From Escherichia coli (GTDB lineage Bacteria; Pseudomonadota; Gammaproteobacteria; Enterobacterales; Enterobacteriaceae), in assembly GCF_044647545.1 (NCBI RefSeq), contig NZ_CP172818.1: a DNA stretch of 64,000 bases, one strand, 5' to 3'. Positions 2,962 through 49,060 of this stretch are shown here, piece after piece. Numbering within the stretch: position 1 is the first letter of the stretch; every line of letters starts with the position of its first letter. The notes below the pieces were generated by a model that was not told the DNA's origin, did no database searches, and saw only the letters and a program-made list of their open reading frames with translations. The position numbers and the translations under genes are program-made.

Positions 2962-3744
2962 TTAGGAACTTATCTCTCCATCCTGACCCGATGGCGCACT
3001 GAACTCAACCCTTTCATTTTCAGGAAGCAGACCCCGCCAGCCAAATTGTGATAACGCCTGCATCCAGGTGTCGTCCAGGCCCGCGTGAATAGTCAGCGGC
3101 TCGCCAGTAAAAGGATGCGTCAATGACAACTGACTGGCATGCAGCATTAACCGCTGAAGGCCAAAATGTTCAGCACCGCTGCGATTCTGGCGTAAATCAC
3201 CATGTTTGCTGTCGCCAATAATCGGGTGGCGCAAATGGGCAAGATGGCGACGGAGCTGGTGCTTACGTCCGGTTTTCGGCTCCAGTTCCACCAGGCCGTA
3301 GCGCGTGGTCGGGTAACGTCCGGTCGCTACCGGCATTTCTACGGTCGCCAGACCGCGATAATGCGTCACTGCTGGCTGCGGGCCTTTATCTTCGCGGGCA
3401 AATTTATCAGCGATTTTGTCCAGTTCTTCCACCAGTGGATAATCCAGCACCGCTTCTTCCATCAACCAGCCGCGCACAATCGCATGGTAACGTTTCTGGA
3501 TTTGGTGCTGTTCAAACTGTTGTGCCAGCAGCCGTCCGGCCTCGCTGGATAATCCCATCAACAACACACCAGAAGTGGGTCGGTCCAGACGATGAGCAGT
3601 AAACACATGCTGGCCTATCTGGTCACGCACGGTTTGCATGACCACTACTTTCTCGTCGCGATCCAGCCAGCTGCGGTGAACCAGCCAGCCGGAGGGTTTA
3701 TTTACCGCAACCAGCCATTCATCCTGATAGAGTATTTCCAGCAT
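2962..3744 (-). CDS. truC: tRNA pseudouridine(65) synthase
   Basis: 260-aa ORF with RluA-family motif [12 protein letters not shown]; recognised as TruC (YqcB). Confidence 0.9.
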
Positions 3745-4073
3745 TAGCTCGCATCATCCGCAAAAAGAGCATCCAGTTTTTCCAGCTCAGCCAGAATAAG
3801 CGCGCGTTGCGGGTGGTCCGTCGCCAGCGCCATTTCATAATAGGGTGCAACGGCAAAAGCGCCCGGTAACGGCTGGTTGTTATCTAACAAATCATGCATT
3901 CGCGGGATCAGCACCCACTGCAACCACTCCAGTGGTTCCATGGTGTCCATAAAGAACGGTTGGGTACTGTTAAATTGATGCGGCTGGGGTTTATCGTTGC
4001 GCCAGTGCTGATGTTCACGCAGTAACGCTTCAAGCGCCTGCAACTGGAGACGAACGCGGTCATGAGTGGTCAT
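3744..4073 (-). CDS. yqcC: DUF446 protein YqcC
   Basis: 109-aa ORF whose stop overlaps the truC start; recognised as YqcC. Confidence 0.8.
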   Translation of the reverse strand: MTTHDRVRLQLQALEALLREHQHWRNDKPQPHQFNSTQPFFMDTMEPLEWLQWVLIPRMHDLLDNNQPLPGAFAVAPYYEMALATDHPQRALILAELEKLDALFADDAS

Positions 4074-4116
4074 AAAGCAACCTCAATAAGAAAAACTGCC
4101 GCGAAGGATAGCAGGA

Positions 4117-4485
4117 ATAAAAAAAGGGAGCACTGTATTCACAGTGCTCCCGGTTCGTTTCGCAGCATTCCAGCTACTTTTGTTGCTCCCTGCTCATCCT
4201 TGACAACTTTTCCTCTGGCCTTGCGGCCAATCGTTCATCCTGAACTATTGCTTCCTGCTCACACCACCCCGATGTGATACTTCATCCTGAAGTGTCCCTG
4301 GCCTTCCTGACCCACCGAATCATCCTGACCGGTTCTCATTCTCCATCCTGGAGGTGTCCTTTAACGCGTCCTGCGTCATCCTCTTCGCTTCATCCAGAAG
4401 CCTTTCCCTGAAACACCATCCTGGTGTGTCCTTCAGAAGTGTCATCATCCTGATGTTCACTTCGTTGTCTGACTCCCTGTCGACG
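4117..4485 (-). ncRNA. csrB: CsrB sRNA (CsrA-sequestering RNA)
   Basis: About 369 nt whose reverse complement contains many CAGGAUG / AGGA motifs (seen as repeated 'catcctg' on the + strand) and ends in a GC-rich hairpin plus U-tail (rc of 4119-4151); located between yqcC and syd as in K-12. Confidence 0.9.
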
Positions 4486-4694
4486 AAGATAGAATCGTCT
4501 TTTTCGCGAAGTCTTACAAGGCGCTTACAGACAATGCCTTAAGGAAAATTTCATATGAAAGTTAAGAATTGACAAGCAATATATTGATTTTAAATGAAAA
4601 TAACGATTCTTATCTTTTTAAGTATTCGCTTATTTCCTGGCGATCTCCTACAGAGTCTGTAAGAGATCTCTCACAACAAGATGGGGTATTTGGA

Positions 4695-5240
4695 TTACAG
4701 AAGAGGCTTAAGTTGATTAAGGAATTCCGCAAGATTTGAGGCTAAATGCGTCCGTTTGCGTGTTCCCAGCGTCTCTTTGCACACTTCACCGGAGAGATTA
4801 CACACCGAGATGACCTCTAACTCTTCTTCCAGCGTCGCGATAAATAGCGTGGGCGGCAGTTTTAGCCTTTTCTGAGTCACCAGATGACCAATCAGATTTT
4901 CCTGCACCCGACGGAAGTCGTCTTCACTCCAGGTTTGCAGCAATGTCAGTTTGATATCGCCAAACTGCGCGTGCATATCCCCGGCAAACTGAGTCGTATA
5001 AAAGGTATGAATTGTGGGTTGTATCACAATATCAAAAGCACGTTCAACCGCGTTTACATTTTGTTCCCCGGTAAACGGCTGGGGTTGCCAGTATACGGCG
5101 TCTTCGGTGGTTGAAATAATGCACGGTGAAGGAACACCGTACAGTTCCTCACTCAACGGCCAGCTTTTATGCTCTTCATGCCACGCATCGCAGTAGCGTG
5201 CAGTAAAATCTTTCAGGGCTTGTGCGGTCAAATCGTCCAC
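4695..5240 (-). CDS. syd: SecY-interacting protein Syd
   Basis: 181-aa ORF recognised as Syd. Confidence 0.85.
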
Positions 5241-27219: not shown

Positions 27220-27232
27220 GCGCATCCACGGA

Positions 27233-27309
<77 letters not shown>

Positions 27310-27342
27310 ATTAAAATTTGATGAAGTAAAGCAGTACGGTGA

Positions 27343-27419
<77 letters not shown>

Positions 27420-27452
27420 ATCAAAATTTAATGAAGTAAAGTAGTACGGTGA

Positions 27453-27529
<77 letters not shown>

Positions 27530-30500
27530 ATTATCTGAATACCCAAGTTTTCACAATCGTTTTTTTTATTTAAATCTTTCCTGAATCACAAAGTTTTTTA
27601 TCTCCCTTCCTCGAATAATCAATTACACTAAATTATCCCTTTCTGTATACTCAATCCCCGATATCCTTGTAATGATATTTTCATTACATCTAAATTCCCA
27701 ACGTTCAACTAAACACATCCACCCCAAAACATTTCTTCTTCAATCACCTAATAAACCCCTCATCCACAACTCCCCCCATTGATGATCAACACATCCATCA
27801 TCACAAATATTTATACTAATAAATCTCCACTCAAAAAAACAAAAAACAATGATGAATCGACTCATAAAATATCTTCAATTATACAAATGAATCCACTTTT
27901 CACAACTAATCTTTTTTCAAAACTAAAACTCAACATCAAAACAATAACCTTCCCATTTTTCCAATATCGTACCAACACAATACGTTTACCTTTAACCCAC
28001 CATCACTCACCCATACCATTTTCATCCATGATACACCGATATTTTCATCCCGAAATAATCCAATGATAAATTCCCAACCATTTGAATTAATCCCAACCAT
28101 TATTACAATAATACTATTCCTCCACGAAATCAATATTTCTATCCCCTCCCGAATCTCGATATTATTTTCACACCAACACAATAACTTCCCCTATAACAAT
28201 CTTCCCAACCCAAATAATCTCTAATCATATTCTATTTAACAATCCCACATTATTCTTAATAATAAATTAAAATTATTCTCTCTACAACCCAAAACACTCT
28301 AAAACACTACCAAACATTTTTATACACACTCACTTCAAAAACCACCCCAAAAATACTTACTGTATTTATATTTTAAATTATGAATTTCTTTAACCATCAC
28401 CCCTGATGATAAACCGAAACACACATAAATTTTTTCAATTCAAATCAACCCACCCATCACCAACAACCAAACAACATCCACACATATCTAAACTAAATTA
28501 TCCCCTCACTTTACGATTTCAACAATAAATCACAACTTACCAACATATATACTAAAAAATCAAATAATTACCCATTTTTTTCAACACATTCCCAATTTCC
28601 CTCTCACACTTTTGAAATAAAATAACAACATCTCTTCCCACATCCAATCCTGTACCCTCCTACCTAACAAAAAACGAATCCTACTCAAAATCCGATTTTC
28701 CAATAAACCGACTTACCAACACCAATAAAAACAACTTTTCCCTACAAATTTATACTTTAATTAAAACGAATCAAAATATCAATAACTCTCTACTTAATTC
28801 TTACATAAAATTTTAATAATATATCTTATTCATTTTTATTCTCCCTGATTAATATTTTTAATTACACTCACAAACCGTAACCCCATATATAATTTTTCTC
28901 ACCCACCATTCAAGAATACCCTCCCCCTCCGTTCCATAACATCCCCCCATAACCATTTCCTTCATGAATTAACACTTAAAATTCATCAAAAGATAACCAA
29001 TACAAACAATCTACCAAAAAAACAACATCACTCCTACATCAATTCAATATTTTATTCAATACTAATTGAATTAACAATATTCTTTAATGATTTACATCCC
29101 AATCTAACAATAAACAATTATATTCATACTATGGATTTACAAAACTATACGATATCTTCTAACTTATGATTAAAATTACTCATTAAATCATAAGATCTTA
29201 TCAAATTAAATTCATATCATTATACTACTACTTTTTCTTTTTTTATTTTAACCGATGTAACTACTCATTAAAAACAAAATCACTATGATTTCATCTAACA
29301 TAACAAATTATCCTTAACCACATTTTATATTCTTCTTCCACCAACTTCCTCGTTATGAGATTACATAATAACACCATCTCTTTTATCTTAAACAAATCCC
29401 ATTATACTACCCCCCTCATTTTTTATAATCAAAACTTCAAATATTCCCTATTTTTTACATCAAAAACATTAAACATTAAAAACAAATATTATCACACGAT
29501 CAATAATCTATTCTTTTCAATAATACATCACATCTATATTATCCATTCATTTTATCTTTTATATTTTATAAACCATTTACTACCATTCAATATTCACATT
29601 CAAACAGTACCTAAAATCTTTCCAAGTTTTCTTAATCCCTACACACTTCTTATCAAATCCATATCTAAATAAAATGTAATACATCTTTTACACCAAATCT
29701 CCCCAAAATCCCATTTACAATATTTCCTTCAAACAGTATTAAAAACATCCATCACATATCCATTATTATCCATATCCACCAACATGACTTTATACCGATA
29801 ATATTTATATTTTATCAATTTAATATAATTCCCCACTCTTTTTATTCTCCTCAATCAACCCATATCGATTTTAAACTAAAGATACCAATTATCCAGATTT
29901 AATATTCTCTTTACCACAATCCTTAACATCTCTCTCTTCACTCTATTTATCAACGTATATCCCTATACTATCCTCATACTTCACTACAATACTCTTCACC
30001 ACTCATCAGTTAAATTTAAAATACAACAACACAAAGTAATAAATAAAAAATACCACTTCGACACACACCTATTCAACTTTCTTCCACCAAACCCAAACTA
30101 ATAAATTGAATCAACCCATAAATCCCATCTTCACCCCATAACAAACACGAATCCATTCATAAATCATAAACAAACACATACTACAAATAAAAAAAATCCA
30201 ACTCCTACCCCCAATAATGATTAACACCCCAAATAACAATCTTTATACTTTTCTTTTACATACATCGATACACCACCCACCACCAACATACTAATCATCA
30301 TTTCTTTCCATTTTCCCCCAAACCACAATACCATTCTCTACACCCATAAAATCATCCATAATACTCTCCCCCAATCACACCTAAACCGACGTAAACAAAA
30401 ATCACCAGATTTTAACCAAAAAACTCACTCCAACTCATAAAAAATAACCGAACAACCGAATATATCATCCAATGACATGAAAATTAAAAACCCAATAAAA

Positions 30501-42963: not shown

Positions 42964-45900
42964 TCATGACTGATTAAAGCGAAACAGCGGTAACAGGAAA
43001 CGTTGCGACTGTTCAACGATGGCCTCCATTGTCTCTGGTGTTAATTGCCGCCAGAGCCGTTGATACCAGATATCATCACCTTCGCCACGCACCATCATGT
43101 TGCCTTCGTAAGCCTGAAGGAATTTCGTTCGGGCTTTTTGCAACGTGGAATCGTCATCCAGCATGGCATCGTTTTGCGCGTCATAACAGGTTTTTAGCCA
43201 CGCGCCGCCACTTTCAGGTAACACCAGCAATGGCGCGGACATTCCTTCACGATACCCCTCAATCAGTTGTGAGAGGTAATGCAAAGCCTGTTCGGCTGCA
43301 AGCGGCGGAAAACGCCACTCGCCGTCTTTGCGTAGAAAAAGGCGACTTTCACCATTACCACCGCTGGCACAGTAGACAAGGTGTTCCAGCCAAAGTTGCA
43401 TTCCCTGCGCCACACTTAATAAAGAGGGACGCCAGCGCAACAGGCCATCCGGCTGCACCTGCGGCAACCAGCCAGTTATCTGCACACCGTTGCAGGCGAG
43501 ATCAATCTCCATACTCTGCCCTGGCTGGCGACAGGCAATGACTCTGTCGGCAAGTTGCTGCATCTCCTGACACTGCGTTTCCCAGAAAATTTCACCAAAG
43601 GCACCATACGGCAAATCACCTGCCGCCCGGAATCGGCGGAACAAGCGTTCGGCATCATCCTGCTCAACCAGTGCATTTAATAACTGCTGGTTGATTTGAT
43701 AACGACTAAGCCCTTCAAGAATAAAAGGTTCGGTGTCGGGAATTTCGCTGTCTTCGGTACGGAAGTTCACCTGCAAACGCATCTGGAAAAACGCCCGCAC
43801 CGGATGCGCCCAGAATCGTTGTAGCGTCTCCAGCGGCACAGTTTCCGGCAAGGTAAACGGCAGCGGCTGAACAAATTCAGAATGTGCTTTACCAGCCTGG
43901 CTGGCCGCAGGTAGCCACTCGCGCGCATAGCTTTGTCGTTCGCCTGGCTGGTAGTTTTGTGGATCAAACGGCATTCGGGTATGGAGGCAAGTAAGATGCG
44001 CTTTTACCCTTGCCTCGCTTTCATCACAGTTGAGCGCTTCATCTCCCGGTAGATAATGGCTTTGCCCGATGTAGTCGATCAGTTCCTGCACCAGTACCGA
44101 CGGGAAACGTTCACTGTTATCCTGAATGGAACGCCCGATATAGCTGATATAGAGTTTTTGCTGCGCGGAAATTAACGCTTCCAGGAACAGATAGCGGTCG
44201 TCATCGCGACGGCTACGGTCGCCACGCTTCGGTTTCTGGCTCATCAGGTCAAAGCCCAATGGCGCAAGCTGGCGTGGATAAACGCCATCGTTCATTCCCA
44301 GCAGGCAAACCACTTTGAATGGGATGGAACGCATTGGCATCAGAGTACAAATGTTAACCGGTCCGGCGAGAAAACGCTGGCTGATACGTTCCTGATCCAG
44401 GCGCTGTGCCAGTTCATCACGCAATAGTGACAGCGGCACCGCGTCGCCATACTGCGCACCTAAACCTTCGGCGATAATCGCCTGCCATTGTTGTTCGATC
44501 AGCGTCATCGCCGCTTCGGTTTCCGCATCCGGCAGGAAGAAGGCGTTGAGCATATCGCGACAAACCGGCAACCACTCTTCCAGCGGACGCTCCTGCGCCA
44601 GCCCGCGACGCCAGATGTTTAGCTGCATTAGCAGTGAAGCCAGATGCCCCACCAGTTCTGCAATTAAGCCGCTCGATTCATCATAAGGTAGAACCGATTG
44701 CCACTCGCCCTGCGCGCTCTCCATCGCGTAGCCCAGCAACATGCGCGTCAGGCCAAACCGCCAGGTGTGTTGACCGGTAGCGGGGAGTTCCAGCTCGCGA
44801 ACGTTGTCGTCATCTATCCCCCAACGAATTCCGGACTCGTTGACCCACTGGCGTAAATAACGCAGCCCTTCTTCGGTGATGTCAAACCGCGCCGCCAGCA
44901 CCGGCACATCCAGTAATGCCAGAACGTCCTCCGACACAAAGCGGCTGTCTGGCAACGATAACAGGCTGATAAACGCTTCAAGTACAGGATGCGACTGCCG
45001 CGCCCGACGGTCGGAAATGGCGTAAGGTAGGTAACGATCCGCAGGTGCGCTACCAAACACAGCCTGAATAAACGGACTGTAGCTGTCGATGTCGGCCACC
45101 ATCACAATGATGTCGCGCGGAGTAAGTGTCGGATCTTCTTCCAACATCGCCAGCAGGCGATCGTGTAAAACTTCAACTTCACGCTGTGGGCTATGGCAAA
45201 CGTGGAAGGTGATACTGCTATCCAGTGGATCAAGCGGGCGTTTGTTATCGCTACGGGAAAACTCTTCGATGTTCACACCCGCAACGGCGCGGTTTTCCAG
45301 TTCCAGAATGTCAGACTGAATGTTATGCAGCAGGTTATCTGGCGTCACATCGACAAAAGCGTCCAGCTCCTGGCTGCTCTCCAGATCAGAAAGGAGATAA
45401 ATGTAGTCGCGTCCAAGCTTGCCCCATGAGGCCAGCAGCGGGTTGCCGACATCCTGTTCACCATCGCTGTTAAAGAGCTGCCCGGCATTTTCGCTGTCGC
45501 GAAATAGCGGTAATTCGCGATCTTCAAAACTGTGTCGGCGCTGGCGAGTCAGCAGTTTCGCCAGATAAGCAGGATCTTTAATGTCGCCCCAGTAATAACG
45601 GCAGGGGTTGGTAAACAGGAGATGGATTTCAATATGTTTACCCAGCGCCTGTAGCGCCTGGAGATAAACAGGCGGTAACGCGGAAATACCGCATATAAAG
45701 ACGCGCGAAGGTAGCCCCGGCGGGCAGGTCGTCGCGGACTCCAGCGTTTCGATAAAGCGCTGATAGAGATTGGCGCGGTGCCAGCGCGGTTGCCCGAGTT
45801 GATGGGTATATTCCACCAACGCCTTCCACAACGGCGCTTGCCAGGCCTGTGCTTCTCCCAGCCCTTCAACCAAATGTCCTGTTTCCCACTGTGCCAGCCA

Positions 45901-46332
45901 GTCCGGACGATAGACCAGATACTGGTCAAACAGGTCCGCCGCTTTTGAAGAAAGCTGGAACAGTTTTCGCTTGTCGCTATCGTCAGTCAGATAATGCCGC
46001 AACAGGGTAAAGTCTTCGCGATCCAGCAATTGCGGCAACAGAGTCATCAGTTTCCAGCTCATGCTCTGTTTGTTAAAGGCGCTCTCTTTGGGGATCTCCG
46101 ATAACACCCGGACGAACATATCCCAGATAAAGCTCGCAGGCAGCGGAAAATCAATGTTTGCCGCAATACCAAACTTTTGCGACAGGGTCATTTGCAGCCA
46201 CTGCGCCATACCGGTACTTTGCACCAGAATCATCTCTGGTTCGAAAGGATCGTCCAGCCGTTCGCGTTCGACAATAAACTCCATCAACGCTTCCAGCACG
46301 TCCAGACGATTGGAATGGTAGACCCTTAACAT
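42964..46332 (-). CDS. recC: Exodeoxyribonuclease V gamma subunit
   Basis: 1122-aa ORF recognised as RecC. Confidence 0.92.
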   Translation of the reverse strand: MLRVYHSNRLDVLEALMEFIVERERLDDPFEPEMILVQSTGMAQWLQMTLSQKFGIAANIDFPLPASFIWDMFVRVLSEIPKESAFNKQSMSWKLMTLLPQLLDREDFTLLRHYLTDDSDKRKLFQLSSKAADLFDQYLVYRPDWLAQWETGHLVEGLGEAQAWQAPLWKALVEYTHQLGQPRWHRANLYQRFIETLESATTCPPGLPSRVFICGISALPPVYLQALQALGKHIEIHLLFTNPCRYYWGDIKDPAYLAKLLTRQRRHSFEDRELPLFRDSENAGQLFNSDGEQDVGNPLLASWGKLGRDYIYLLSDLESSQELDAFVDVTPDNLLHNIQSDILELENRAVAGVNIEEFSRSDNKRPLDPLDSSITFHVCHSPQREVEVLHDRLLAMLEEDPTLTPRDIIVMVADIDSYSPFIQAVFGSAPADRYLPYAISDRRARQSHPVLEAFISLLSLPDSRFVSEDVLALLDVPVLAARFDITEEGLRYLRQWVNESGIRWGIDDDNVRELELPATGQHTWRFGLTRMLLGYAMESAQGEWQSVLPYDESSGLIAELVGHLASLLMQLNIWRRGLAQERPLEEWLPVCRDMLNAFFLPDAETEAAMTLIEQQWQAIIAEGLGAQYGDAVPLSLLRDELAQRLDQERISQRFLAGPVNICTLMPMRSIPFKVVCLLGMNDGVYPRQLAPLGFDLMSQKPKRGDRSRRDDDRYLFLEALISAQQKLYISYIGRSIQDNSERFPSVLVQELIDYIGQSHYLPGDEALNCDESEARVKAHLTCLHTRMPFDPQNYQPGERQSYAREWLPAASQAGKAHSEFVQPLPFTLPETVPLETLQRFWAHPVRAFFQMRLQVNFRTEDSEIPDTEPFILEGLSRYQINQQLLNALVEQDDAERLFRRFRAAGDLPYGAFGEIFWETQCQEMQQLADRVIACRQPGQSMEIDLACNGVQITGWLPQVQPDGLLRWRPSLLSVAQGMQLWLEHLVYCASGGNGESRLFLRKDGEWRFPPLAAEQALHYLSQLIEGYREGMSAPLLVLPESGGAWLKTCYDAQNDAMLDDDSTLQKARTKFLQAYEGNMMVRGEGDDIWYQRLWRQLTPETMEAIVEQSQRFLLPLFRFNQS

Positions 46333-46344
46333 AGCGGCTCCTGA

Positions 46345-46668
46345 CTACTGACGATTCGGGCAATGCAGGCGGGTCATCTCGCCTTCTCTGCCCCCGGGTG
46401 AAACTAGCGTAACGCTGATGCTGACACATCCCGCCTGCGATGTCTGCATTCGGTTGACCTGCCAGTTGGCAGGTGGCGAAATCGCACGCAGTTGCGTTTG
46501 CTGCCAGCCATGCCGCCAGAGCTGTTGGTACTGGTTTCTGCTGGCAAGACTGTTCATTAATGTTCGCTGGAAACCCGATAACGCAGTGACAATCATCACC
46601 ATCAACACCATCGCCAACATTACCTCCGGCAGGCTAAAGCCTTGTTGATTCTTCAGGGAAGCTGACAT
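46345..46668 (-). CDS. ppdC: Prepilin peptidase-dependent protein C (minor pseudopilin-like)
   Basis: ORF-track ORF 46345-46755; the 107-aa form starts [27 protein letters not shown] (prepilin-type N-terminal motif). Confidence 0.8.
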
Positions 46669-47060
46669 AACGCCCTCTCTTTCAGCGGACAAAAATCGCT
46701 CCAGCCGCGTGGCGAAAAAACAATGTTTCCATCGATGACTTCGCCTGTTCGCCACAACGAAACGCCTTCATAACCGGCAATCAATAAAGCCTCATTATCT
46801 GCCAATAAACGCAGACAAACCCGGGCACCGGTGGCAGCGTACAGTAAGCACTGAACTGCTGGCTGCGTCTGCCAGGAGTGCATTTTTCCCCACTCCAGCG
46901 CCGACTGAACGATGGCATGGCGGCGCAATGACTGACTTTCCATGCTCACGCGAGAGGCAAAACTGCGATCCTGTTGGCTCATTCCTTGTAATAGCAAGCT
47001 ACCCAAAATCAGCAGCATCAGGACCAGAGCCAGTGACGAGACACCCTTTTCGCGGTTCAC
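46653..47060 (-). CDS. ygdB: DUF2509 protein YgdB
   Basis: 135-aa ORF with N-terminal hydrophobic segment; overlaps ppdC and ppdB ends. Confidence 0.8.
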
Positions 47061-47620
47061 AGGTTGGATCCTGTCACGCTATAGCTGGCATCCACCACGG
47101 TTTGCGGATCAGCCTTGCTGGCAGCGTGCATATTAACCGTCAACACCGGCGAGAAGCCGCTGACATCCTGACGTACGACCTGAAAAGTGTCGATAATGAT
47201 GGCATCCGGATTAGTGACTTTATCCCAGCCCTTACCTTCACAGGATGTCGCACCGCGTAGCGTTTCCAGCACATGCTCCTTCAGACGAAATCCAATCTGG
47301 TCGGACTCTTTTACCGGTTCGCGATCCCAGATACCGTTACTGTTCGCATCCCACTGCACAATGACACAGTCACCCTGTCCGACAATTTCCAGCCCTTCGC
47401 CGGTACAGCTGCCATGACAATAACCCGCCCTCTGGAGATGCTTCGCAACGGTAAATACCCGCAGCCAGATTTCATCTTCCAGCGCCAGCTTACGGGTGCT
47501 CGTTAAACTGTCACGCTGTAACGCAGGCAGAAAGCGTGCAGCCCCCAGCAACAATACGCTACTGATCGCCATAGCAATCAACACTTCCAGCAGAGAAAAA
47601 CCTTGCTCTTTTACAGGCAT
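47057..47620 (-). CDS. ppdB: Prepilin peptidase-dependent protein B
   Basis: ORF-track ORF 47057-47860; the 187-aa form starts [27 protein letters not shown] (prepilin-type N-terminus). Confidence 0.8.
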
Positions 47621-48081
47621 CCTTCTGTTTCTCCTTGCTGACAAAGCCGGAGTCTTCCCCACGGCGAAACCACCAGCCACCACTCGCCCGTTGAGTTTTT
47701 GAAGCGAATATGCCCGGCCCATGCGGTATTGCGCAGGCCAAAGAAAGCAAGCGAAGGTGTCAGATCGCTCATTTCGACTTCGGGCCAGCGTGGCACAAAG
47801 ACCAATGGTGAACTGCCATGACAGGTATTGGCCCCAGCAGCGGAACTCACAAGGCACCATAACGTCCCCTCCCTGATAACACTGATACTGTGGTCGCGGT
47901 TATGCCAGTTGGCATCTTCACGTAAATAGAGCAAATAGTCCCGCGCCTGGCTGGCGGTTTGCCAAAGCCGTTGCGACTGCTGCCAATATTGCCAGCCATA
48001 GAGCCCACTTGCGCTTAGCATGACCAGAATCAGCATCGCGACCAGCGTTTCAATCAGCGTATAACCACGTTGTGTTTTCAT
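47611..48081 (-). CDS. ppdA: Prepilin peptidase-dependent protein A
   Basis: 156-aa ORF starting [22 protein letters not shown] (prepilin-type N-terminus). Confidence 0.85.
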
Positions 48082-48265
48082 GCCGGCAGTATGGAGCGAG
48101 GAGAAAAAAAGACGAGGGCCAGTTTCTATTTCTTCGGCGCATCTTCCGGACTATTTACGCCGTTGCAGGACATTGCAAAATTGCGGGAAGGCGTCTCGAA
48201 GAATTTAACGGAGGGTAAAAAAAACCGACGCACACTGGCGTCGGCTCTGGCAGGATGTTTCGTAA

Positions 48266-49060
48266 TTAGATAGCCACCGGCGCTTTAATGCCCGGATGCG
48301 GATCGTAGCCTTCAATCTCAAAGTCTTCGAAACGGTAGTCGAAGATGGATTCGGGTTTACGTTTGATAATCAACTTCGGCAGCGGACGCGGTTCGCGGCT
48401 TAATTGCAGATGAGTTTGATCCATATGATTGCTGTACAGGTGCGTATCGCCACCGGTCCAGACAAAATCACCCACTTCCAGATCGCACTGCTGCGCCATC
48501 ATATGCACCAGTAACGCGTAGCTGGCAATGTTGAACGGCAGGCCGAGGAAGACGTCACAGGAGCGCTGATAAAGCTGGCAAGAGAGTTTGCCGTCTGCCA
48601 CATAGAACTGGAAGAATGCATGGCACGGTGCCAGCGCCATTTTATCCAGTTCGCCTACGTTCCACGCTGAAACAATAATGCGGCGCGAATCCGGGTCGTT
48701 TTTCAGCTGGTTCAGTACCGTAGTGATCTGGTCAATATGACGACCATCTGGCGTTGGCCAGGCGCGCCACTGTTTACCATACACTGGCCCGAGGTCGCCG
48801 TTTTCATCGGCCCATTCGTCCCAGATGGTGACATTGTTTTCGTGTAGATAAGCAATGTTAGTGTCGCCCTGCAGAAACCACAGCAGTTCATGGATGATGG
48901 AACGCAGGTGGCAACGTTTAGTTGTCACCAGCGGGAATCCATCCTGCAGGTTAAAACGCATCTGATGACCAAAAATGGAAAGCGTTCCGGTTCCGGTACG
49001 GTCGTTTTTCTGTGTGCCTTCGTCGAGCACTTTTTGCATCAGTTCTAAATACTGTTTCAT
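48266..49060 (-). CDS. thyA: Thymidylate synthase
   Basis: 264-aa ORF recognised as ThyA (active-site region [13 protein letters not shown]). Confidence 0.95.

Follow-up and report, generated by a model that had tools for sequence, protein, structure and literature searches.

The closest described counterparts of the operon considered here are the FimU-PilV-PilW-PilX set of Pseudomonas aeruginosa and the PilH-I-J-K set of Neisseria. As in Escherichia coli, four pilin-like genes are found per operon, and one of the products (PilX and PilK, respectively) lacks Glu5, as does YgdB. Priming of pilus assembly and a location at the pilus tip are likewise ascribed to these sets and, putatively, to that of E. 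coli. Such a core or HIJK set has been defined as an operon of four pilin-like genes of which exactly one encodes a protein without Glu5 (PMC9934059, PMC7541494), and it is by the absence of Glu5 that the capping subunit of the tip complex, K/PilX, is recognized (PMC7541494, PMC9934059). A review equates ppdA, ppdC, ppdB and ygdB of E. coli with FimU, PilV, PilW and PilX as well as with GspH, GspI, GspJ and GspK (PMC7248040). Unlike the P. aeruginosa and Neisseria sets, the E. coli operon follows the gene order H-J-K-I, its expression depends on Sxy, and the remaining genes of the machine are scattered over other loci. A PilY1 or PilE partner is not known in E. coli (PMC7248040, Table 1). The GspH-I-J-K proteins of the type II secretion system (T2SS) of E. 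coli and Klebsiella (PDB 3CI0) share with the ppd set the fold, class III signal peptides and overlapping genes, and GspK (N-terminus MNNEQRG/VALLI, with the slash marking the cleavage site) lacks Glu5 as YgdB does. A more remote parallel is the PilA-PilB-PilC tip complex of the Gram-positive Streptococcus sanguinis, which consists of three minor pilins with grafted modules, at a sequence identity of 6%.

A second line of relationship leads to the competence genes of the Pasteurellaceae. Cameron and Redfield noted in 2006 that four prepilin-peptidase-dependent genes of similar size adjoin recC in both Enterobacteriaceae and Pasteurellaceae, and treated the ppd genes as orthologues of Haemophilus pulG-HI0941 (comNOPQ), which belong to the CRP-S competence regulon (PMC1635313). 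This orthology was taken from position, because BLAST shows no sequence similarity (PMC1635313). In Haemophilus influenzae, comNOPQ (HI0938-HI0941) are four small genes directly upstream of and co-oriented with recC, as in E. coli, and in both organisms they belong to the CRP-S/Sxy regulon, with the strongest induction at the first gene (PMC1635313, PMC12616744). A paper from 2025 describes the same synteny and an Sxy-regulated E. coli operon with ppdA as the most strongly induced gene, referring to Sinha 2009 and Jaskolska & Gerdes 2015 for the Sxy induction (PMC12616744). While comNOPQ are demonstrably needed for natural transformation of Haemophilus, E. coli is barely transformable (PMC3330819).

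In the window, i. e. the whole stretch of 64,000 nucleotides analysed here, the operon occupies positions 46345-48081 of the minus strand. The initial annotation had reported four co-oriented genes at precisely these coordinates, and its gene names, their order ppdA-ppdB-ygdB-ppdC and the place upstream of recC agree with the genome annotation. The first gene, ppdA (47611-48081, ATG start, 156 aa), encodes a minor pilin assigned as the H subunit (FimU/GspH type) and is followed by ppdB (47057-47620, ATG, 187 aa) for the presumed J equivalent (PilW/GspJ type), ygdB (46653-47060, GTG, 135 aa, DUF2509) for the presumed K or tip equivalent (PilX/GspK type) and ppdC (46345-46668, ATG, 107 aa) for a small minor pilin assigned as the I subunit (PilV/GspI type). 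The annotated and conserved downstream neighbour is recC (42964-46332), while thyA (48266-49060) lies on the far side of ppdA, both again on the minus strand. Overlaps of 4-16 nt had been claimed, and the measured values are 10 nt for ppdA/ppdB, 4 nt for ppdB/ygdB (GTGA, which combines the ygdB start with the ppdB stop) and 16 nt for ygdB/ppdC. It is plausible that these overlaps couple the translation of the four genes and thereby lead to matched subunit amounts. Longer open reading frames of 267 aa for ppdB and 136 aa for ppdC were dismissed as artefacts of taking the first in-frame start, as the conserved prepilin leaders appear only with the annotated starts.

PpdA, PpdB and PpdC all pass the cut-offs of Pfam N_methyl (PF07963) and TIGR02532 and match the NCBIfam equivalogs for the respective E. 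coli proteins at E values from 1e-65 to 1e-99. For PpdA, the values are 3e-7 (N_methyl), 1e-74 (PRK10506) and 1.4e-3 for a weak GspH match; for PpdB, they are 6.5e-9 (N_methyl), 1e-98 (PRK10557) and 1.7e-4 for a weak GspJ match. The N-termini read MKTQRG/YTLIE in PpdA and MPVKEQG/FSLLE in PpdB, and the predicted mature part of PpdC begins with FSLPE after a leader ending in Gly-1. Alignments of orthologues show Gly6 and Glu11 of PpdA (eight orthologues), Gly7 and Glu12 of PpdB as well as Glu15 of PpdC, which corresponds to Glu+5, to be invariant. Altogether, Gly-1 and Glu+5 of these three proteins are unchanged in orthologues down to 20-31% identity. Both the profile search and the alignment of cleavage motifs that had been suggested as checks thus support the earlier view that the proteins resemble minor pseudopilins, with N_methyl/TIGR02532 matches above the cut-offs and weak matches to GspH, GspJ and GspK. 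The accompanying count of three prepilin-type N-termini holds for the canonical motifs of PpdA, PpdB and PpdC; it falls short in that YgdB is prepilin-like too, albeit without Glu5. Sequence searches of PDB chains with PpdA, PpdB and PpdC gave essentially no match, the only one for PpdB being the Thermus pilin TTHA1219 at a marginal E value of 0.08. Apart from this match, solved structures exist neither for the four proteins themselves nor for sequence relatives of them. A structural model of PpdC displays the pilin fold, and its structural matches include Gsp minor pseudopilins.

The fourth protein, YgdB, starts with the prepilin-like sequence MNREKG/VSSLA, in which Glu5 is absent. Among 61 aligned family members, Gly6 is present in 60 and precedes a hydrophobic segment, four cysteine positions hardly vary, and none carries Glu at +5. 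YgdB does not match the N_methyl HMM, its sole Pfam match at E <= 0.1 is DUF2509, and PilX_N (PF14341) gave no match at this threshold. YgdB would function like PilX, yet it is not a member of the PilX_N family at the sequence level. Databases still label the protein DUF2509. An exhaustive HMMER search over 1.84 billion representatives retrieved 114 clusters, so the family is a narrow one. The AlphaFold2 model built on the alignment of 61 relatives is confident (pLDDT 95, pTM 0.80) and consists of a helix of 53 residues with five beta-strands after it, i. e. the pilin fold, and the best PDB matches of the model are minor pilins. GspI and GspK are among the structural matches to the YgdB and PpdC models. 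YgdB is clearly of the Glu5-less tip-pilin type.

With four pilin-like genes in a single operon, exactly one of them without Glu5, ppdA-ppdB-ygdB-ppdC represents, in E. coli, the HIJK core set of minor pilins known from type IVa pili. At the level of single subunits, weak profile matches pair PpdA with GspH, PpdB with GspJ and YgdB with GspK, at 12-22 bits compared with equivalog cut-offs of 44-130 bits. In pairwise BLASTP comparisons with the Gsp proteins of K-12, YgdB was nearest to GspK and PpdC marginally nearest to GspI, the similarity between ppd and Gsp proteins being confined to the N-terminal helix. The weak HMM matches to GspH, GspJ and GspK could also be taken to mean that the four proteins are spare T2SS minor pseudopilins, with a role in protein secretion and none in a type IV pilus. 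The Pfam name of the PpdC domain, "Type II secretion prepilin peptidase dependent protein C", would suit this idea, as would the reported functional interchangeability of minor pilins from type IVa pili and T2SS (PMC7248040). However, all scores stay far below the Gsp equivalog cut-offs, and no gsp genes occur within the window. The ppd genes lie outside the gsp operon, which contains its own machine and, in K-12, its own gspH, gspI, gspJ and gspK; this argues against the ppd genes as T2SS spares. Furthermore, YgdB has 135 aa, whereas GspK has 327 aa and a large inserted domain that YgdB consequently lacks, the gene order is H-J-K-I instead of H-I-J-K in gsp, and co-regulation with ppdD and the hof genes under Sxy has been reported. 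A role as T2SS spares is therefore hardly credible.

The remaining parts of a type IVa pilus machine reside elsewhere in the chromosome. No secretin, ATPase or platform genes are annotated in collinear genome segments covering the window, and the collinear annotated genome contains only housekeeping genes from gudP to ygeA. The initial annotation was hence right within the window in seeing no such gene nearby, but the partners are present at two other core loci. The separate ppdD-hofB-hofC locus was found in 5424 of 5426 complete E. coli genomes and hofMNOPQ, again a separate locus, in 5425 of them; the annotation of the hof genes refers to DNA utilization proteins. In K-12, the gsp operon ends with gspO, a gene annotated as a prepilin peptidase, and PppA is a second such enzyme of E. 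coli. In a preprint, a pilus assembly plasmid was constructed from hofBC, hofMNOPQ, ppdAB-ygdB-ppdC and gspO for the expression of PpdD pili (10.1101/856302).

A query of 2.8 kb around the operon matched 5425 of 5426 complete E. coli genomes, with at least 80% of the query aligned in 5424, and the operon region belongs to the E. coli core genome. The DNA itself is not from K-12, in terms of which it had previously been discussed: the genes from recC to lgt are 95.6-99.7% identical to those of MG1655, and positions 39800-64000 are identical to strain FDAARGOS_497, to which the window is ~97% identical in its left part. Synteny was examined on contigs that carry YgdB relatives. Five other enterobacterial loci (L009-L013, YgdB identity 43-65%) display the order lgt-thyA, four genes, recC and repeat the overlap pattern of 10 or 4, 4 and 16 nt. 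In L009-L012, recC is again preceded by the same junction of 12 nt, while the gap in L013 measures 31 nt. Because this geometry recurs, the operon layout represents a conserved architecture and not chance. In two distant loci (26-34% identity), genes for proteins of ~160 aa, 185 aa (PpdB), a DUF2509 protein and 90 aa lie directly upstream of recC-recB, and in one of these the genes upstream of the pilin set are unrelated. Every recovered locus that extends past the four genes continues with recC. As the set is found beside recC even in the distant loci, the linkage with recC is older and tighter than that with thyA.

Estimates of dN/dS from five E. coli strains amount to ~0.1 for ppdA, ~0.4 for ppdB, 0.1-0.3 for ygdB and ~0.2 for ppdC, in comparison with 0.03 for the 5' part of recC. 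Since these values are well below 1, the four genes are constrained and not decaying. At the protein level, YgdB and PpdB change ~10 times faster than RecC. Relaxed constraint was considered as a cause of this fast evolution and rejected, given dN/dS values of 0.1-0.5 and conserved motifs. The interior of ygdB is a divergence hotspot, with nucleotide identities to the window of 90-95% in 1897 genomes and of 80-90% in 10 genomes; for ppdA, 10 genomes fall below 95%. In strain 13E0725, the ygdB allele shows a dS of ~0.7 and a dN of ~0.07 between nearly identical ppdB and ppdC genes, a pattern that points to an imported segment.

These data bear on the possibility that the operon is strictly cryptic, a relic in decay that has lost its function and is retained only for sequences needed in recC expression. 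The faster evolution of YgdB and PpdB compared to their neighbours could be read in this way, as could the start of recC only 12 nt past ppdC, the missing Shine-Dalgarno sequence of ppdA and the absence of expression and piliation in ordinary culture (PMC3330819). Yet all four genes, and even the divergent ygdB of 13E0725, have dN/dS values well below 1, at least 80% of the region is aligned in 5424 of 5426 complete genomes, and none of the four genes carries a pseudogene flag in the five strains examined. In addition, cysteine pairs and the Gly-1/Glu+5 motifs are kept down to 26-30% identity, and deletion of the genes is reported to abolish pilus assembly in EHEC (PMC7248040, citing the primary work). 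A relic is accordingly very improbable, and the preferred reading as functional minor-pilin genes is pursued in the following.

Upstream of ppdA, the transcription unit of thyA ends with an intrinsic terminator at 48217-48245 on the minus strand (GCCGACGCCAGTGTGCGTCGG then T8, -16.6 kcal/mol, z = -2.9), whose hairpin and T-run are conserved across genera with compensating changes. As this terminator isolates the operon, the latter needs its own promoter. When the 184-nt spacer between thyA and ppdA was screened with the consensus sequences of CRP-S (TGCGA-N6-TCGCA) and CRP-N sites, the best score, 7/10, fell inside the thyA terminator and was rejected. Comparison of seven sequences instead revealed two footprint blocks on the minus strand. 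Block I (TTCTTCGAGACGCCTTCCCGCAATTTTGCAATGTCCTGCAACGG, 48160-48203) is a candidate CRP-S region, and block II (GTCCGGAAGATGCGCCGAAGAA, 48130-48151), in which the CG.A columns are invariant, is a second candidate position centred ~59.5 nt from the ATG. In other genera, the position of block II is occupied by a ppdD-like sequence, TCGTAACGCCCCGCAAAA, or by a TGCGT-N6-ACGCA palindrome, of which the E. coli version is degenerate. The two blocks hold the CRP-S-like half-sites TTCGA, TTGCA and CCGAA, and the candidates score at most 6 of 10 core positions. E. coli CRP-S sites pair one good with one poor half-site, such as TGCGA and TTCCG at sxy (PMC6728893), and such weak matches are therefore expected. 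When the sequences upstream of ppdA and ppdD are aligned locally, the top-scoring alignment pairs block I with the CRP-S-like site of ppdD, TTCTTCGTAACGCCTCGCAAAT, at a score reached by 19 of 2000 shuffles. TGCAAC and TAAA(T/A)A follow the site at identical spacing in both promoters. The overall promoter layout is similar between ppdA and ppdD.

A sigma-70 pattern scan found no minus-strand promoter, and an Rfam search over 45800-48700 gave no match. Three terminator-like matches were dismissed, as they occur at chance level and lie in T-rich codons of hydrophobic helices. A -10-like hexamer of putative function, CATACT (48088-48093, minus strand), is located 6 nt upstream of the ppdA ATG. The seven enterobacterial sequences have CA(T/C)ACT 6-7 nt before this ATG, the distant loci L006 and L008 have AATACT and TAAGCT at its place, and each of the nine loci examined, with protein identities as low as 26-30%, thus carries a -10-like hexamer. 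No Shine-Dalgarno sequence precedes the ppdA start, which together with the hexamer hints at a leaderless transcript. Conceivably, an Sxy/CRP promoter could start transcription at or beside the ATG, with the CRP-S site ~60 nt upstream, to give a leaderless or near-leaderless ppdA mRNA that reaches recC. This combination is, however, unlikely.

At the other end of the operon, the ppdC stop and the recC ATG are 12 nt apart. The junction (46333-46344, minus strand, TCAGGAGCCGCT) contains the Shine-Dalgarno sequence of recC, is too short for a terminator and showed no terminator-like site in the pattern scan. Read-through into recC is proposed because of this short distance and the lack of a terminator before recC, and recC is probably co-transcribed with the four genes. 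A transcript-stability study (PMC3936743) likewise handled ppdAB-ygdB-ppdC-recC as a single operon. The two distant loci have 73-75 nt ahead of recC, with TATAAT or TATACT in this gap, and recC hence has its own promoter there.

Regarding function, the initial description as poorly defined is out of date in view of the published minor-pilin assignment and the Sxy induction (PMC7248040, PMC12616744). Deletion of ppdA, ppdC, ppdB and ygdB leads to strong pilus-assembly defects in EHEC, as the review summarizes from Luna Rico 2019 (PMC7248040), and expression of Sxy in E. coli results in processed PpdD and measurable DNA uptake (PMC3330819). The operon very probably provides the chromosomal type IVa pilus or DNA-uptake machine of E. 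coli with its core minor pilins, one equivalent each of H, J, K and I, which act by the mechanism outlined below. This reading is based on the gene structure, pilin motifs, YgdB and PpdC folds, conservation, synteny, purifying selection and partner loci observed here, and on the piliation requirement, H/I/J/K assignment and Sxy induction taken from the literature.

The operon is silent in laboratory culture, and cAMP-CRP together with Sxy (TfoX) would turn it on at a CRP-S promoter that follows the thyA terminator and precedes ppdA. The four proteins would then be inserted into the inner membrane by their hydrophobic N-terminal helices, and their leaders are predicted to be cleaved after the conserved Gly. 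By analogy with GspHIJK and FimU-PilVWX, they may self-assemble into a staggered complex with YgdB uppermost, above which nothing could dock because YgdB has no Glu5. PpdC and PpdB would be positioned below YgdB, and PpdA may join the complex to PpdD, an order that is putative. The complex is expected to prime the polymerisation of PpdD and to remain at the pilus tip, while the induced transcription would continue into recC. The other parts of the machine would be supplied from elsewhere, namely the major pilin PpdD, the ATPase HofB, the platform protein HofC, the alignment proteins and secretin HofMNOPQ, and the peptidase GspO.

The same mechanism might serve another purpose, in that the four proteins could mainly support DNA uptake instead of long adhesive pili; they would then form a short pseudopilus for competence, at whose tip PpdA acts as the receptor that binds DNA. 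Membership in the Sxy/CRP-S regulon and the positional correspondence to Haemophilus comNOPQ, which are needed for DNA uptake and transformation (PMC1635313, PMC12616744), speak for this role, as do the linkage with recC kept in distant taxa and the annotation of the hof genes as DNA utilization proteins. ComN/PpdA has moreover been put forward as a DNA receptor from modelling (PMC12616744). For E. coli, however, DNA binding by PpdA is a model-based proposal, natural transformation is barely detectable (PMC3330819), and EHEC forms long PpdD (HCP) pili with reported roles in adhesion and twitching (PMC7248040). Moreover, the DNA-uptake and pilus roles are not mutually exclusive. A predominant function in DNA uptake thus deserves serious consideration, at somewhat less than an even chance.

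Taken together, the assignment of ppdA, ppdB, ygdB and ppdC to the core minor pilins adds little to existing knowledge, as the operon is already annotated across E. coli genomes, its minor-pilin and Sxy-regulon roles are published and the adjacency to recC has been noted since 2006. Everything essential on the operon is thus already annotated or published. Minor leads are the divergence hotspot in ygdB, the possibly leaderless ppdA mRNA, the promoter layout shared by ppdA and ppdD, and the DUF2509 label of YgdB. If the leaderless ppdA transcript and the read-through into recC were to prove true, the supply of RecBCD subunits would be tied to the priming of the DNA-uptake pilus.

No Shine-Dalgarno sequence precedes the ATG of ppdA, the first gene of the minor-pilin operon ppdA-ppdB-ygdB-ppdC (minus strand, 46345-48081), within window positions 48082-48093. 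Instead, a -10-like hexamer is conserved 6-7 nt 5' of this ATG in 9 of 9 loci, including the five enterobacterial loci with the same operon (L009-L013) and two distant ones (L006, L008); it reads CATACT or CACACT, and AATACT or TAAGCT in distant relatives. Judged from sequence, the missing Shine-Dalgarno motif together with the position of the hexamer suggests that the ppdA mRNA is leaderless or carries a very short leader.

Further upstream, the ppdA promoter (48130-48203) and the region preceding ppdD in K-12 (locus L003, 4051-4252) have a common layout, in which TTCTTCG(A/T)nACGCC comes first, TGCAAC lies at +33 and TAAA(T/A)A lies at +43. The score of the local alignment between the two upstream regions was matched by only 19 of 2000 shuffles. 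Of the two conserved blocks forming candidate CRP-S regions, the second (48130-48151) aligns with a ppdD-like candidate CRP-S site in other genera, its E. coli version being degenerate. Within block I (48160-48203), the window strain and K-12 MG1655 differ at two positions (CCCGCAATTTTGCAAT versus CCCGAAATTTTGCAAC, respectively, at 48174-48190), and the T-run of the thyA terminator differs by one T between the same strains.

At the other end of the operon, 73-75 nt separate recC from the final minor-pilin gene in the distant taxa (L006, 6800-6872; L008, 6725-6799), with TATAAT or TATACT inside this gap. Unlike in E. coli, recB directly follows recC in both loci without an intervening ptrA. In L008 (GCA_018494105.1), one gene of the bacteriorhodopsin family and one of the beta-carotene dioxygenase type (3184-4706) precede the minor-pilin/recC cluster in place of thyA.

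The window as a whole is a mosaic relative to E. coli strain FDAARGOS_497: 39800-64000 is identical, while the departures lie within 1-39800, with only 97.2% identity across 1457-30318, a stretch containing three tandem tRNA-Met genes (~27231-27533). The segment 30318-31544, which adjoins a PTS/PRD-domain gene cluster, has no match in that strain.

A few database entries of 228-237 aa (P0004, P0020, P0031, P0044) are fusions of YgdB and PpdC domains (DUF2509, N_methyl and T2SSppdC); these probably reflect frameshifts or gene calling over the 16-nt overlap in some assemblies.

Within the species, the ygdB interior (46669-47056; also loci L016-L018) is a hotspot of divergence. With the window as reference, nucleotide identity of this interior is 90-95% in 1897 of 5425 E. 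coli genomes and 80-90% in another 10, whereas ppdA falls below 95% in only 10 genomes. The dN/dS of ygdB is still 0.1-0.3. The allele of E. coli strain 13E0725 reaches a dS of ~0.7 between near-identical ppdB and ppdC, and therefore looks, at the sequence level, like an imported segment.
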